From IMG/VR virus record IMGVR_UViG_2693429676_000011: a DNA stretch of 10,097 nt. One strand, given 5' to 3'. Of the stretch, positions 709 through 9,665 are shown one piece after another (the stretch's first letter is position 1; the number at the start of each line of letters is the position of its first letter). The notes under the pieces are model-generated. The model was given only the letters and a program-made list of their open reading frames with translations. It did no database searches and was not told the origin of the DNA. Source of the DNA: a virus (Duplodnaviria; Heunggongvirae; Uroviricota; Caudoviricetes). The position numbers were made by a program, and so were the translations under genes.

Positions 709-738
709 AAAAAAAGCCACCAGTTAAGTACTGATGGC
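709..738 (-). terminator. Putative intrinsic terminator between nanS-p and the holin gene
   Basis: On the minus strand an 8-bp stem (gccatcag / ctggtggc, one G-U pair) with a 7-nt loop is followed by TTTTTTT. Confidence 0.5.
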
Positions 739-823
739 TCTGATAACTCATGCAGGCATCTCAGACGACCCACTGACACTACCGGTGAGTTTAACGATAC
801 CTTCCATTTGGCTGGCTCACTTT

Positions 824-2677
824 TTATGATGATGCCGGTGCATTTATCTCCAGCACCAGACTTTCTATCTCAACGCCATACGCTGCATTTTTGGTAATAT
901 CCGTCAGCGTCAGCGCATTCAGCCCCAGTGTCAGACTGTCTTTTATGACCTGGAATGCCGGGCCAGCCACTCCATTCAGTTTCGGAGTAACCGTGGCACT
1001 GCCGGCGGTGAACACCAGCTCCAGCGTCAGCCAGTCGTTACTGTAATTCCCGAACTCGCCCAACTTTGTGTTTCCTGCTTTCTTGTGATGCATCAGATTC
1101 AGTTTGCCGTCTGTGGTCTGGGTGAAGAACGACATCAGGAACGGGTTACCAGTCCCGGTCATCGCCACGACGTCAGGTAACGCTACATCGGTATACAGAT
1201 AAATTCCCAGACCGAACTGGTTGTTGGTCAGTGCGCCTGACAGTCGAAACTTACAGCTCAGTCTGCCACCCCGTGTCAGCAGGGAGACTGCGTCATCCAC
1301 CGGGCGCGTCAGGGACCAGGCTTTATTGCTCTGCTTGGTGATCTTAAATACACCATCTGACAACTGAACTCCGCCATTCTTAATGCTCCAGCCCTGCGCA
1401 GCAGCGTCTCCGGCTGTCGGCAACAGGGAGATTGTGCGTATGGATGCATCTTCAGACGGCCCCGATGGCGTGTCGCCGCCGGGCGAGGGTTTGATTTCCG
1501 GTGCCTTACCACTAATGAAGGCTAAGGTGCGACCGGCTACGTTCAGAATAGCAGTTGCCATACGATCGGGAATAATGCCACGACGCGCCCATGAGCTGAA
1601 ATGCGTCGGGCGATTTGATGATACCCAGTTTTTGTTCGTTCGGGATGCCGAACCGTAATAACCAGACCCGGCAATATCAGGATCTTCTGACGGGTTGTTT
1701 GTCGGTGTATTAACTCCGCTACCATCGGTCATAAAGGGAACAAAATAAATCTGCTGGGATTCTTTACCTTTATATGCACCATATACCACTTCATATTGCG
1801 TACCGTGTTCTTGTTTCCACGCGTATGTCGTGTCGCCACAAATCCAGGGGACTGATGCCGGACTTCCACCGTGACACTGCGCCGCCAGCCCGGCAAGGTC
1901 AGCACGGAACTGCTGTACCATTGCAAGAAATGCTGCTGGCTGCTGGGCGTAACTGGCATTCGTCATATCGAATTCCCCCTGCATCCAGCATATCGCCAGC
2001 AAAACGTTTTTCGGGTTTTTCTGCAATGCTGCCTTCGTGCGGAAAAGCAGATCCTGATATAACGGCTTACCCACTCCCCAGCGAGCCGAATCCTGACTGG
2101 CCCCCGTGGACTCGCTGAATGTCCCCTCCGTGCCCTGGGTGAATGCCGAACCACCACAACAGCATGGTACCAGCAGGATCCCCGCATTATTAGGGATATA
2201 CGGAAGCAGTTTTTTGGCAATATGTAAGCCCTGTCCGACACAGCCGTACTGCCCTTTGCTCAGGTCAGCCCGGGGATGGTTAATCGTACTCATATCCTGA
2301 ACATCATGCAGACAATGGTCAGCAGGAATGATGTCGTTAAATACGCATACTTCACCACCGGGAGTCACTGTGTTACGACGGGCCAGTTGCTTAATGCGCG
2401 GATGGGGCGCATCGTATGAATCCGGAAGCGGAAGACCTTCACCGTAAGCCATGGCATTGGATTGCCCGGCCAGTACGATGACGTAGTACCACTCCGGCTC
2501 AGTTGCACCACTGACGACCACATCACCTTCTGCTGCAATCGCCTGCATCAGGGTATAAGGGGTTATGGCCACCGGACTACCAAACGGCTGCCAGCCCTCC
2601 TTCAGTTTTTGTGTCAGTCGTTTCGCAAGGTCTGACGGCGATGCCGCCCTGACCACGTCATAGTGTTTAAATGCCAT
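824..2677 (-). CDS. nanS-p: Prophage-encoded sialate O-acetylesterase (NanS-p family, SASA/SGNH hydrolase), 617 aa
   Basis: Long ORF with the SASA active-site block VIVLAGQSNAMAYGEG and an N-terminus MAFKHYDVVRAASPSDLAKRLTQKLKEGWQPFGSPVAITP that matches my recollection of NanS-p proteins encoded downstream of stx in EHEC lambdoid prophages. GGAGGA precedes the ATG. It occupies the canonical position between the tRNA/stx site and the lysis genes. Confidence 0.9.
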   Translation of the reverse strand: MAFKHYDVVRAASPSDLAKRLTQKLKEGWQPFGSPVAITPYTLMQAIAAEGDVVVSGATEPEWYYVIVLAGQSNAMAYGEGLPLPDSYDAPHPRIKQLARRNTVTPGGEVCVFNDIIPADHCLHDVQDMSTINHPRADLSKGQYGCVGQGLHIAKKLLPYIPNNAGILLVPCCCGGSAFTQGTEGTFSESTGASQDSARWGVGKPLYQDLLFRTKAALQKNPKNVLLAICWMQGEFDMTNASYAQQPAAFLAMVQQFRADLAGLAAQCHGGSPASVPWICGDTTYAWKQEHGTQYEVVYGAYKGKESQQIYFVPFMTDGSGVNTPTNNPSEDPDIAGSGYYGSASRTNKNWVSSNRPTHFSSWARRGIIPDRMATAILNVAGRTLAFISGKAPEIKPSPGGDTPSGPSEDASIRTISLLPTAGDAAAQGWSIKNGGVQLSDGVFKITKQSNKAWSLTRPVDDAVSLLTRGGRLSCKFRLSGALTNNQFGLGIYLYTDVALPDVVAMTGTGNPFLMSFFTQTTDGKLNLMHHKKAGNTKLGEFGNYSNDWLTLELVFTAGSATVTPKLNGVAGPAFQVIKDSLTLGLNALTLTDITKNAAYGVEIESLVLEINAPASS

Positions 2678-2870
2678 GAATCCTCCCGGCCGGGATAATA
2701 TTGTGAGTAAAATAAGGAGCGGGCTGAAGTCCGGAAGTTACAGGACAATGGCAGAAGAGAGACGACAGCCCGCAATTCGAAAAAGACCGCGCAGTTGCGC
2801 AGAGTGATTACTATGGGGTATTATTCGCCAGCTGAAATATTACTTCACGTTTTATTGTTTATTCCTTGCC

Positions 2871-2899
2871 GCCCGCGTCTCCCAGCGCGGGCTTTTTTT
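2871..2899 (+). terminator. Plus-strand intrinsic terminator, convergent with the minus-strand terminator at 2909..2928
   Basis: Perfect 7-bp GC stem gcccgcg (2871..2877) / cgcgggc (2886..2892) with an 8-nt loop, followed by TTTTTTT (2893..2899) on the plus strand. Confidence 0.5.
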
Positions 2900-2908
2900 G
2901 CCCACAAG

Positions 2909-2928
2909 AAAACCCCTCCGGAGAGGGG
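2909..2928 (-). terminator. Minus-strand intrinsic terminator ending repeat module U1
   Basis: Stem cccctc / gagggg with loop cgga (2913..2928); on the minus strand the hairpin is followed by UUUUCUUGU. Confidence 0.45.
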
Positions 2929-3176
2929 CTAAAGCCGCGTATCTGTATCATCATGCACATGGTGCCGGGTGCCTCCCGGTGAGTTCAGCCCGGTGCCACT
3001 AAACCCGCGTCATTCTCGTTTTGATAATCAGAGATTATACCGTCACCAGTCGCCCCTCCGCTCAGGGGGATTCACCATGCGAAATTTTTTTAACAAATGC
3101 CCAGTCTGACAGGCAACTGTCAACTTACTGAATTGTGAGCAACATAGCATTTAACGGGGAACCTGTTTTCTGCAGT

Positions 3177-3203
3177 AAAAAGGCCCACCGGAGCGGATGG
3201 GCC
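3177..3203 (-). terminator. Minus-strand intrinsic terminator at the upstream edge of U1
   Basis: Stem ggccca (3182..3187) / tgggcc (3198..3203) with a 10-nt loop; on the minus strand followed by UUUUU (rc of 3177..3181). Confidence 0.5.
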
Positions 3204-3394
3204 TGGAAGGATAGCGGTCATGTGATGCCGGTTTCCCGGTAACTCAGCACCGGTATCTGAGTCAACGTTTTCTCTACTGGGTCATTTCCGATACGCCCTG
3301 CCTGCTGACAGGCTTTCATCACATCTGAAAATATAGCACCCTGACTGATACTGTAGTACCTAAGGTTCCAGAAACTGTGATGTATCCGGCACAG

Positions 3395-3416
3395 AAAAGC
3401 CCCTCCGGAGAGGGCT
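3395..3416 (-). terminator. Minus-strand intrinsic terminator ending repeat module U2
   Basis: Stem cccctc / gaggg(c) with loop cgga; on the minus strand followed by UUUUCUGUG. Confidence 0.45.
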
Positions 3417-3612
3417 GGAGAGTGGCGCTATGTGCCATTGCATGATGCCGGGTGCCTCCCGGTGAATTCAGTACCAGCACCTGAATCCGCGATTATCCCA
3501 TATACCTACTCGCTGATTGCCCCTCCGCACAGGGGGATTCACCATGCCAGTTTCTTTTAACAAACTCCCCGCAAAACAGACAACTGTCAACCGTCTGAAT
3601 TGTGAGACATTT

Positions 3613-3652: not shown

Positions 3653-3729
3653 TGGCGCGTTGTACTGGATTCGAACCAGTGACCGATTGCTTAGAAGGCA
3701 ATTGCTCTGTCCGGCTGAGCTAACAACGC
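3653..3729 (-). tRNA. tRNA-Arg, anticodon UCU (reads AGA)
   Basis: Manual cloverleaf on the reverse complement: GCGTTGT TA GCTC AGCCGGACA GAGC A ATTGC CTTCTAA GCAAT CGGTC ACTGG TTCGAAT CCAGT ACAACGC G CCA. Perfect 7-bp acceptor stem, 5-bp anticodon and T stems, TTCGAAT T-loop, encoded CCA; 77 nt. Confidence 0.9.
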
Positions 3730-3742
3730 ATGATGCAGATAA

Positions 3743-3819
3743 TGGACCGCCATCGGGGACTTGAACCCCGCGCAGCCAGCTTCGAAGGCTGGCGCTCTTT
3801 CCTGATGAGCTAATGGCGG
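3743..3819 (-). tRNA. tRNA-Arg, anticodon UCG (reads CGA), atypical C1-G72 and D-loop
   Basis: Reverse complement folds as CCGCCAT TA GCTC ATCAGGAAA GAGC G CCAGC CTTCGAA GCTGG CTGCG CGGGG TTCAAGT CCCCG ATGGCGG T CCA. All stems are perfect and CCA is encoded; 77 nt. First base C and the unusual D-loop lower confidence slightly. Confidence 0.8.
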
Positions 3820-3826
3820 TATGTGA

Positions 3827-3902
3827 TGGTGGCCCTTGCTGGATTTGAACCAGCGACCTGGCGATTATGAGTCGCTCGCTCTCACCACTGAGCTAAAGGG
3901 CC
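3827..3902 (-). tRNA. tRNA with CAU anticodon, ileX/ileZ-like (Ile2 lysidine type or Met)
   Basis: Reverse complement GGCCCTT TA GCTC AGTGGTGA GAGC G AGCGA CTCATAA TCGCC AGGTC GCTGG TTCAAAT CCAGC AAGGGCC A CCA; 76 nt. Near-identical in architecture to my recollection of E. coli ileX. Lambdoid Stx phages carry an ileZ-argN-argO trio at this position. Confidence 0.85.
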
Positions 3903-5573: not shown

Positions 5574-6395
5574 TTACCTAGTTACCTTTTTTAACTGCCG
5601 CTCAGCCCATGCTTCTTCAATATCAAACCGGGTCACCAGCGCATCATAAAATTTCTTAACTGTTTTTTCCCATGACGCGCGTGTTATCTGGTTTGTCACC
5701 TCGCATATAGCATTAAATGCCTCCGTTGATGGTAGTCTTTCATAGCCACGACCACCACAACGCTGGCAGTCTCTGATAACAGGCATACCACGTTTTACCG
5801 ACTCTTCACGATGAATGGCGACACCACGCCCACGGCAATCCTTACAGGCGGTGGAAACCTCACCCTTTCCGCCACACTCCGGACAGGCAACTTTTACCAC
5901 CTCCCTGACTTTTTTCCATTCTTCCCAGTAAGACGGATACACACCTTTCGTACACTTTGCCCATACCGGCGGCTTACCATCCGGATACTGGATCTTGTTT
6001 GTAAAAACCTCGCTTTCAATAAATTTTTTTCCGTGACAGCAGGGGCACTGTTTTTTGCTCGCCGCGCTACGGGCATAATCTTCAAACGCATACGAAGCCA
6101 TAATACGCATCACTGCCGGTTTTATTTCTGCCGGGAGTTTTCTTAACGCCGCCACGCGATCACACCGACTGAGTGCATATTCTGTCAGCAATTCTGTTGC
6201 CCGCTCTCTGTCATTCATACTAATGCCCATTTTCCCAAGGAACGCAGAAACCCCCATCTCAGCCCGATTCTGTGTCATGCCCTGCGCGGCCATCACATCA
6301 GTGATACTCAGCGCATCTTTCGACGTTGAGGCCGATGCATCAGTCAGGCCGGGGGATTTTGGGGAGTAGTATTTCGGTAAATCTTCCAGTTTCAT
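5574..6395 (-). CDS. Late antiterminator Q (QuuQ/Q82-like, with DnaJ-type CxxCxGxG zinc motifs), 273 aa
   Basis: Lies immediately upstream of the pR'-like promoter and downstream of rusA sequence. Cys-rich motifs CPECGGKG, CKDCRGRG, CQRCGGRG. Start ATG overlaps the TGA of a 37-codon rusA 3' remnant (ATGA). Family call is from memory plus position, not a search. Confidence 0.75.
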   Translation of the reverse strand: MKLEDLPKYYSPKSPGLTDASASTSKDALSITDVMAAQGMTQNRAEMGVSAFLGKMGISMNDRERATELLTEYALSRCDRVAALRKLPAEIKPAVMRIMASYAFEDYARSAASKKQCPCCHGKKFIESEVFTNKIQYPDGKPPVWAKCTKGVYPSYWEEWKKVREVVKVACPECGGKGEVSTACKDCRGRGVAIHREESVKRGMPVIRDCQRCGGRGYERLPSTEAFNAICEVTNQITRASWEKTVKKFYDALVTRFDIEEAWAERQLKKVTR

Positions 6396-6562
6396 TTTTT
6401 GACCTGCCCTTCAAGCATTATGGGATAAATCTTCACCCCCAGACGTCCACCAGATACTGGCTGAGCACGAACGATATTGATTTCATCAAACTGCTCATCG
6501 TCCATTAACGGCGCTTATCCGGTGGTTCTGCAATAATTTTTATTGCCAACCTTCCGGACAGG
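5890..6562 (-). repeat. Tandem duplication, copy A (Q 5' part, rusA 3' remnant, junction)
   Basis: 5890..6507 aligns with 6563..7182 at an offset of 675 bp. 53 bp at 6510..6562 match 7247..7299. The 11-bp tccggacaggc occurs at 5879..5889, 6552..6562 and 7289..7299. Confidence 0.85.
6392..6505 (-). pseudogene. Duplicated 3' remnant of rusA (37 codons, MDDEQFDEINIVRAQPVSGGRLGVKIYPIMLEGQVKK) upstream of full-length Q
   Basis: Block 6396..6507 is identical to 7071..7182, the 3' end of intact rusA. Retains an in-frame ATG and the ATGA overlap with the Q start. Confidence 0.6.
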
Positions 6563-7070
6563 CAACTTTTACCACCTCCCTGACTTTTTTCCATTCTTCC
6601 CAGTAAGACGGATACACACCTTTCGTACACTTTGCCCATACCGGCGGCTTACCATCCGGATACTGGACCTTGTTTGTAAAAACTACGCTTTCAATAAATT
6701 TTTCCCCATAGCAACAAGGGCACTGCTTTTTACTCGCTGCGCTGCGGGCATAATCCTCAAAAGCGTACGAAGCCATAATGCGCATCACTACCGGTTTTAT
6801 TTCTGCCGGAAGTTTTCTCAACGCCGCCACACGATCGCACCGACTGAGTGCATAATCTGCCAGTAATTCTGTTGCCCGCGCCCTGTCATTCATACTAATG
6901 CCCATTTTCCCAAGGAACGCAGAAACCCCCATCTCAGCCCGATTCTGTGTCATGCCCTGCGCGGCCATCACATCAGTGATACTCAGCGCATCTTTCGACG
7001 TTGAGGCCGATGCATCAGTCAGGCCGGGGGATTTTGGGGAGTAGTATTTCGGTAAATCTTCCAGTTTCAT
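6540..7070 (-). pseudogene. Truncated paralog of Q (Q'), 176 codons: the Q N-terminal region (through KVACPE) plus 3 junction codons
   Basis: Matches full Q through ...KVREVVKVACPE, then reads GWQ-stop across the duplication junction. Eight amino-acid differences from Q cluster in the middle. Start ATG overlaps the rusA TGA (ATGA). Confidence 0.7.
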
Positions 7071-9333: not shown

Positions 9334-9489
9334 TTACTCCTCAGGTTCGTAAGCTGTGAAGACAGCGACCTCCGTCTGGCCGGTTCGAATTCGTACCTCG
9401 CAGAGGTCTTTCCTCGTTACCAGTGCCGTCACAATGACGGTTAAACAGATGACGATCAGGGCGATTAACATCGCCTTTTGCTGCTTCAT
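9334..9489 (-). CDS. hokD: Hok-family type I toxin (HokD/RelF-like), 51 aa
   Basis: Translation MKQQKAMLIALIVICLTVIVTALVTRKDLCEVRIRTGQTEVAVFTAYEPEE matches my recollection of E. coli HokD/RelF. An upstream in-frame ATG at 9546 gives the 70-aa six-frame ORF and sits where mok lies in hok/sok loci. Confidence 0.9.
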   Translation of the reverse strand: MKQQKAMLIALIVICLTVIVTALVTRKDLCEVRIRTGQTEVAVFTAYEPEE

Positions 9490-9537
9490 AGCCTGCTTCT
9501 CCTTGCCTTTCGGCACGTAAGAGGCTAACCTAGATTT

Positions 9538-9608
9538 GCCGTTCATAGATTGAGCCTCAGATTAATGTTAAGCGTCTTGCCGGACGCGTAATGTTAACTG
9601 GGGCTTTT
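9538..9608 (+). ncRNA. Candidate Sok-like antisense RNA of the hok locus
   Basis: Plus-strand promoter-like elements: -35 TTGCCT (9503..9508), 17-nt spacer, -10 TAACCT (9526..9531). They parallel the R1 sok promoter as I recall it (TTGCGC, 17 nt, TATCCT). The predicted transcript is antisense to the mok start region and ends in a U-rich stretch (cuuuucucuaucugccuuuu). Ends are approximate. Confidence 0.4.
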
Positions 9609-9665
9609 CTCTATCTGCCTTTTGGTGTTCATGCCTGAGACAGATAGCCTCAAGCACCCGCTGCA

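Follow-up and report, generated by a model that had tools for sequence, protein, structure and literature searches.

A plus-strand RNA antisense to the nanS-p leader of a lambda-like prophage is most likely the Hfq-binding sRNA EcOnc08/EcOnc21/EcOnc42

Genomic organization of the window

The window, by which we mean the whole 10,097-nt stretch that was analyzed (IMG/VR record IMGVR_UViG_2693429676_000011), represents the late-regulatory part of a lambda-like (lambdoid) E. coli prophage, whose genes are read on the minus strand. On this strand the order is hok/sok, DUF968, RusA, two Q-family antiterminators and an N6/N4 DNA methylase, followed by three tRNAs, two tandem sRNAs of the STnc100 family, a nanS-p-type esterase and a holin (Table 1). 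The original prediction considered all credible genes of the region to be on the minus strand, which is true for all Pfam-supported open reading frames, the three tRNAs and both STnc100 copies. The hok/sok type I toxin-antitoxin locus (9334-9659, minus strand) was detected by both the Rfam sok model (112 bits) and Pfam HOK_GEF. The two Q-family antiterminator genes (5574-6395 and 6540-7070, minus strand; 273 and 176 aa) are arranged in tandem ahead of the cargo of methylase and tRNAs. One of the tRNAs (3827-3902, minus strand) has a CAU anticodon and was called Met by ARAGORN; its homologue is annotated as ileZ or tRNA-Ile in Sakai and ATCC 11775. The spacer between the nanS-p stop (824) and the holin contains a 12-pair terminator (713-741, minus strand), and the PasA/PasC sRNAs have been located in this esterase-holin position (Zhu et al. 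2026).

The plus-strand sRNA examined here is antisense to the nanS-p leader. A 176-bp stretch around it (2760-2935) was found at 90% identity or more in 1067 of 5426 complete E. coli genomes, so that about one fifth of these genomes carry the RNA, including EHEC O157, O111, O103 and O104 as well as EPEC. The stretch was without annotation in all 40 records listed. BLAST gave a 100% match in the type strain ATCC 11775, despite which pattern scans of the GTDB representative genomes returned no match; possible reasons are that the collection masks the stretch or that ATCC 11775 is not the representative used there. Evidence for the sRNA comes from Escherichia and Shigella phages and prophages, and the scans of GTDB representatives added nothing beyond them.

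Table 1. Coordinates of the features discussed in the text
Feature	Position	Strand	Remarks
nanS-p-type esterase, 617 aa	824..2677	-	DUF1737 + SASA + DUF6645
Candidate upstream promoter ATGCCA-17-GATAAT	2671..2699	+	promoter scan, 9/12; +1 near 2706
Stretch matching the EPEC 182-nt Hfq-associated sRNA	2718..2899	+	Table S6B coordinates mapped by alignment
Upstream Hfq-binding part of the long form	2734..2819	+	CRAC peaks EcOnc21 (Sp4) and EcOnc42 (Sp15)
Late-strand hairpin and T-run in the nanS-p leader	2787..2802	-	contains the -35 TTGCGC of the plus-strand promoter
Candidate internal promoter	2795..2824	+	-35 TTGCGC 2795-2800, 18-nt spacer, -10 TATTAT 2819-2824
Predicted 70-nt primary transcript	2830..2899	+	if the TTGCGC/TATTAT promoter fires; coincides with the EcOnc08 peak 2825-2897
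Probable seed CCUUGCC	2864..2870	+	directly 5' of the terminator stem
Intrinsic terminator of the plus-strand sRNA	2871..2899	+	hairpin 2871-2892 and T7 2893-2899
STnc100-family sRNA copy 1, convergent partner	2900..3109	-	Rfam RF02076, 161 bits; terminator 2911-2930
Three tRNAs	3653-3902	-	

Convergent terminators and the STnc100 partner

The strong plus-strand terminator with a GC stem and T7 has the sequence that was originally described. Its stem, GCCCGCG(T)/(G)CGCGGGC, consists of seven G-C pairs and one U.G pair closed by a 6-nt loop. A terminator scan of the window reported 29 terminator-like sites, compared with 9.9 +/- 3.3 in shuffled sequences, and this hairpin with its T7 ranked first among them. 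When RNA 2830-2899 was folded (dG -17.9 kcal/mol, z = -2.9), the 3' hairpin formed and the 5' part was largely open.

The adjoining minus-strand terminator is also present, although it was located at 2911-2930 and not at 2909-2928 as first placed. It has eight pairs, lies 11 bp from the plus-strand terminator and has a tail (TTTTCTTGTGGGC) that reaches down to 2900. Because this tail and the STnc100 model both run to 2900, the 3' ends of the two RNAs should lie a few bp apart without overlap. A single bidirectional terminator was rejected: there are two separate hairpins, and the minus-strand side of 2871-2892 reads GGCAAGG with no U-run.

The convergent partner is the first of two full STnc100 (RF02076) copies, the second of which (3387-3576) scores 123.6 bits; the gathering score is 47. 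Copy 1 occupies approximately the position of EcOnc05 of Sakai Sp4, which was described as a late-strand RNA of about 222 nt (Tree et al. 2014, PMC4104026) and maps to roughly 2921-3029 of the window. Between the two full copies (3110-3386, minus strand) lies a fragment that resembles the 3' part of STnc100 (accgggaaaccggcatcacatga) and has its own strong terminator at 3181-3204; judging from its sequence, it may be a truncated third copy.

Relationship to published prophage sRNAs

The plus-strand RNA is very probably the known prophage sRNA EcOnc08/EcOnc21/EcOnc42, which is represented in EPEC by E2348C_1409.E2348C_1408.IGR, converges with STnc100, binds Hfq and acts in trans, most likely through CCUUGCC. 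Positions 2760-2930 of the window matched Sakai Sp4 with 92.4% and Sp15 (the Stx1 phage) with 91.8% identity over 171 nt, and the alignment with EPEC PP6 was near base-for-base, with a mean column identity of 96% in the three-way alignment. The homologous loci also have the same layout: the RNA gene lies in the nanS-p leader, runs against the late operon and meets an STnc100-type sRNA 3' end to 3' end.

Hfq-binding sRNAs have been described as convergent pairs lying in the region from the moron coding sequence downstream of PR' to the conserved downstream ORF, in Sakai prophages Sp3, 4, 5, 9, 10, 11, 15 and 17; on the antisense strand, Table S2 of the same study lists the Hfq-CRAC peaks EcOnc08 (in five of five datasets), EcOnc21 and EcOnc42 (Tree et al. 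2014, PMC4104026). The EcOnc08 peak of Sp4 maps to 2825-2897 of the window, and EcOnc42 of Sp15 maps, after correction for a coordinate shift, to 2735-2817, the same place as EcOnc21 (2734-2819). This shift arises from the fact that coordinates given on NC_002695.1 (Tree 2014, Waters 2017) are about 136 nt lower than those of NC_002695.2 beyond approximately 1.2 Mb and identical to them at 1.18 Mb; it was calibrated on AsxR, EcOnc03 and CLASH fragments and is needed to place the old sRNA tables on the current Sakai record. With a strand-specific Northern oligonucleotide named EcOnc08/21/42, EHEC gave a signal of about 271 nt. In EPEC E2348/69, the RNA was reported as a 182-nt species on the minus strand of prophage PP6 (1444797-1444978), and its homology to EcOnc08/21/42 was stated by the authors (Pearl Mizrahi et al. 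2021, Table S6B, PMC8550237). Its 3' end (NC_011601 1444797) aligns with position 2899 of the window, the exact end of T7.

Strand, Hfq association, 3' end and interaction partners have been demonstrated in relatives of the window RNA. The transcription antisense to the late operon that had been deduced from the plus-strand terminator is borne out by strand-specific CRAC and Northern data for the Sakai homologues and by the RIL-seq sRNA candidate in EPEC. The observation is real but not new, since the plus-strand RNA is a reported, if little-studied, Hfq-binding RNA, and the interpretation first attached to it is partly supported, being correct in large part. Although already published, the RNA is absent from Rfam and from RefSeq annotation and has neither a name nor a validated target, and recognizing it prevents it from being reported as new.

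Pairing region and trans partners

In EPEC, the RIL-seq partners of the RNA include the 5'UTRs of cfa (767 chimeras) and dppA (197), as well as emrA, tir, espC and pcm, and they have in common a GGCAAGG/GGCAGGG motif that is complementary to the sRNA segment immediately upstream of the terminator (Pearl Mizrahi et al. 2021, PMC8550237). The window allele keeps nine contiguous pairs with the cfa site, and CUUGCC is retained in most alleles. RNase E CLASH in Sakai gave hybrids through the CACGUUUUGUUG...CCUUGCC region, each as single reads. In later papers and reviews, EcOnc42/21/08 are still listed without known targets. When the whole duplex between the window sRNA and the cfa or dppA leader was considered, its energy was no better than that obtained with shuffled sRNAs, and the assignment of the seed therefore depends on the RIL-seq motif. 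On this basis, base-pairing in trans on Hfq through CCUUGCC is the likely mechanism.

Pairing of the window allele with AgvB, AsxR, EcOnc03 or GcvB was not significant in any case; the complementarity to GcvB, which was evaluated as a test of core-sRNA sponging by the 5' variable region, was equaled by 36% of shuffles. The only pairing that reached 1.4% of shuffles was that of the Sakai allele with AgvB. A role as a mimic of GcvB R1 or as an anti-AgvB RNA, prompted by the GU-rich core, was unsupported, as the similarity to GcvB was matched by 17-58% of shuffles.

Transcript forms and promoters

Different sizes are obtained from different sources: about 271 nt by Northern analysis in EHEC, 182 nt by RNA-seq in EPEC, and 194 or 70 nt as predicted from two candidate promoters. 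We infer the 5' end or ends of the window RNA. The upstream candidate, which overlaps the start codon and Shine-Dalgarno sequence of nanS-p on the opposite strand, would on sequence grounds be the start of the long form. CLASH fragments start at about 2708-2711, and the 5' end of the EPEC RNA was estimated at 2718. The Northern size of 271 nt fits neither candidate promoter.

The internal promoter had been put forward as the source of an RNA of roughly 70 nt. The hexamers and the 18-nt spacing were confirmed, and their position was found to be that of the RACE-mapped AgvB and AsxR promoters; the RNAs reported for the relatives, on the other hand, are longer and cross this promoter. In an alignment with AsxR (Sp5), AgvB (Sp10) and EcOnc03 (Sp9), the nanS-p leader is common to all up to GCGCAGTTGCGCAG and diverges thereafter. 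In the three anti-sRNA loci an 18-nt spacer comes next, then TAAAAT and, 5 nt further on, the published 5' end (CGAUAAC.., CGAUUAUU..); in the window an 18-nt spacer is followed by TATTAT. Homology to Stx2a phages stops at 2802. The hairpin at 2787-2802 is common to all slot alleles, and it can be regarded as the boundary of a cassette because the sequence shared with Stx2a phages and with AsxR/AgvB prophages ends exactly there.

It is possible, although we consider it somewhat less probable than its opposite, that a sigma-70 promoter of the form TTGCGC-18-TATTAT produces a separate RNA of about 70 nt, either beside the longer RNA or as the main functional form. Its -35 and spacer length are the same as those of the RACE-mapped AgvB, AsxR and EcOnc03 promoters, and the rule that +1 is the sixth nucleotide after the -10 box reproduces the published 5' ends of AgvB and AsxR and places +1 of the window at A2830. 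Among 115 IMG/VR loci, which were retrieved through the terminator, the -35 was invariant and the -10 was changed in one locus, while the spacer at 2812-2818 was often variable. The EcOnc08 peak was called apart from EcOnc21, with a gap between them that corresponds to the -10 box. In addition, the published Northern probe is complementary to the plus-strand RNA at 2792-2826, that is, to the proposed -35 to -10 region upstream of +1, and would therefore be blind to a short form.

Against a separate short RNA, published reports contain no 70-nt species, and on the basis of RNA-seq coverage the RNA of EPEC was called as 182 nt long (Pearl Mizrahi et al. 2021, PMC8550237). The EcOnc08 peak reaches 5 nt upstream of the predicted +1, whereas the peaks of the three mapped anti-sRNAs are confined to their RNAs, and two CLASH fragments span the -10 box and +1. 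The promoter matches the consensus at only eight of 12 positions and was not reported by a simple promoter scan. The shared promoter position, -35 and spacer length together with the near-invariant hexamers thus make a separate 70-nt RNA plausible, but because the longer RNAs (182 nt, about 271 nt and the CLASH fragments) cross the proposed promoter, this species is unproven.

Variation among alleles of the slot

A survey of the slot revealed two allele classes, Type A and Type B, plus two other bodies. Type A, to which the window belongs, has the -10 box TATTAT and comprised at least 27 distinct RNAs in the 145 loci sampled; Type B has TAAAAT and contains AgvB, AsxR, EcOnc03 and further variants. 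The 5' ends of Type A RNAs are variable (AGCUGAAAUAUUA, UGCUGAAUAAAUUA, CGGUGAAUAAUCGAAACUCA and UCGUUAAUUAAUUG), and their core (CUUCACGUUUUGUUGUUUAUUCCUUGCC) is conserved. Their terminator stems include GCCCGCG, GCCCGCA/UGCGGGC (a compensatory change from G-C to A-U), GCUCGCG (with a G.U pair) and AACCGCUC/GAGCGGUU, and despite these changes each allele folds into a 3' hairpin followed by a U-run. Pairing was retained in 88-89% of stem cells, two pairs had double changes, and none of 500 shuffles reached the observed covariation score. Support from stem covariation is modest in this narrow family, and the alleles with a CCGCUC stem are one register off in both MAFFT and model-guided alignments, which lowers the covariation count; for these reasons, the per-allele folds are the preferred evidence. 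A Type A covariance model (R1) scored members at 47-103 bits, with 102.5 bits for window 2830-2899, and Type B sequences at 12-15 bits (E = 2-8). The Type A family is missing from Rfam.

Several IMG/VR loci showed rearrangements. Two of them (L045 and L046) have two Type A copies apiece, and in a third (L131) an IS1 end is inserted within the sRNA body. In L094, a Type A sRNA is joined to a partner terminator of the Sp9/Sp5 type, and this junction implies that the two halves of the dyad recombine independently.

Proposed mechanism and alternative explanations

We infer the expression and regulatory outcome of the window copy, and the proposed sequence of events is as follows. The plus-strand sRNA gene, placed in the nanS-p leader within the moron site of lambdoid prophages and antisense to the Q-dependent late operon, would be transcribed in lysogens while the late operon is silent. 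The RNA would bind Hfq by means of a U-rich stretch, the GC hairpin and the U7 tail, and its CCUUGCC would pair in trans with sites resembling GGCAAGG in mRNAs of the host and of virulence genes (those of tir and emrA and the leaders of cfa and dppA). Each of the two terminators may halt polymerase before it enters the other sRNA gene, and as a pair they may also protect both flanks, one with nanS-p and the lysis genes and the other with the tRNAs and Q. The significance of such an RNA lies in the position of its gene beside stx or the moron insertion site and in its contacts, in interactome data, with the transcripts of cfa, dppA and tir, a gene of the LEE.

A role that is mainly in cis, with the antisense RNA and its terminator acting on the late transcript or the nanS-p leader and the trans targets being secondary, appears unlikely. 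Such action could proceed by transcriptional interference, by duplex formation with read-through late mRNA, or by keeping antisense transcription out of STnc100, the tRNAs and Q. The full complementarity of the RNA to the nanS-p leader makes some effect on late transcripts possible; moreover, the candidate upstream promoter overlaps the nanS-p translation start, the late strand has two further terminator-like hairpins here (2911-2930 and 2787-2802), and the two sRNAs, which meet tail-to-tail, do not overlap. However, Hfq RIL-seq and CLASH yield trans partners with a common motif, AgvB and AsxR from the same slot act in trans, and in prophages without nanS-p the dyad lies directly beside the holin gene (Zhu 2026).

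It is very improbable that there is no plus-strand RNA and that the hairpin serves only to structure or stabilize the late transcript of the minus strand: by symmetry the 2871-2892 hairpin can indeed form in minus-strand RNA, but there A7 precedes it and GGCAAGG comes after it, so that it has no terminator function on that strand, and the antisense RNA appears in each of the strand-specific data sets from homologous loci (CRAC, Northern, CLASH and RIL-seq). Even less credible is a prophage copy of the OmrA/OmrB family, rejected as a sub-threshold, terminator-driven resemblance, since the best sub-threshold Rfam match of 2811-2899, OmrA-B (RF00079; 25.2 bits, E = 0.007), lies below the gathering score of 40, is carried by the terminator, the U-tail and a GGUAUU that is here the -10 box, and goes with absence of the 5' seed CCCAGAGGUAUUGAU.

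Comparison with known systems

The preferred reading, an Hfq-binding RNA that acts in trans, can be compared with several known systems. Lambda OOP RNA is likewise a short antisense RNA of a lambdoid phage that is made from a promoter of its own, ends at an intrinsic terminator and converges with a phage operon; unlike the window RNA, it lies at the end of cII, acts in cis via RNase III, is unrelated in sequence and is not known to depend on Hfq. The AsxR-EcOnc27 dyad 3' of stx2AB resembles the window in that two Hfq-binding sRNAs converge on adjacent terminators downstream of PR' cargo, but the cargo of the window is a DNA methylase with tRNAs instead of stx, and its STnc100 sRNA is present in two tandem copies.

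AgvB, AsxR and EcOnc03 (RF02702, RF02703) occupy the same slot between the moron/tRNA region and nanS-p and, like the window RNA, run opposite to the late operon and have an STnc100-type sRNA as their tail-to-tail partner. They also share the -35 TTGCGC within the common hairpin, the 18-nt spacer, a 3' GC hairpin with a U-run, and a 5' part that is variable next to a more conserved terminator-proximal part. The differences are that the RNA body of the window is non-homologous, its -10 is TATTAT instead of TAAAAT, and its predicted length is 70 nt against 51-60 nt for the anti-sRNAs with their mapped triphosphate 5' ends, with longer forms documented for its EHEC and EPEC homologues; furthermore, the partners of these homologues in RIL-seq and CLASH are mostly mRNAs. 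Membership in the AgvB/AsxR family by sequence was rejected, as RF02702 and RF02703 gave no match in the window at the gathering score or at E<=10 and the reverse comparison reached only 12-15 bits, and a sequence comparison did not find in the window RNA the conserved 3' region of about 42 nt of the anti-sRNAs (GUAUCUCAUGC..GCCCGAACCCAYUCGGGC). Slot and promoter architecture are thus shared and sequence models are not, which places the window RNA outside the anti-sRNA sequence family.

Should the short RNA exist, 2830-2899 might be read as an EcOnc08-type allele of the AgvB/AsxR anti-sRNA cassette, an assignment to which we would give slightly less than even weight. More doubtful is the wider proposal that, with the promoter active, the 70-nt RNA represents a fourth, sequence-unrelated allele class of a recombining anti-sRNA cassette whose alleles may converge on the same host node. 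If this were true, the cassette would combine a promoter -35 common to its alleles with a body that can be exchanged, a terminator, and a convergent partner that is exchanged on its own. AgvB frees dppA from GcvB, and the Type A RNA makes direct contact with the dppA leader in the RIL-seq data. Prophages would then compete or cooperate by means of interchangeable sRNA cartridges.

The closest counterparts remain EcOnc08/21/42 and the EPEC RNA. RNAs of this type are Hfq-bound in both EHEC and EPEC, and the window copy is known from its sequence. The window allele differs from them by a few SNPs, namely A in place of G at 2854, one base of the loop and bases in the spacer at 2813-2818, and it agrees with them in sequence (92% or more), place, strand, terminator and convergent STnc100-type partner.
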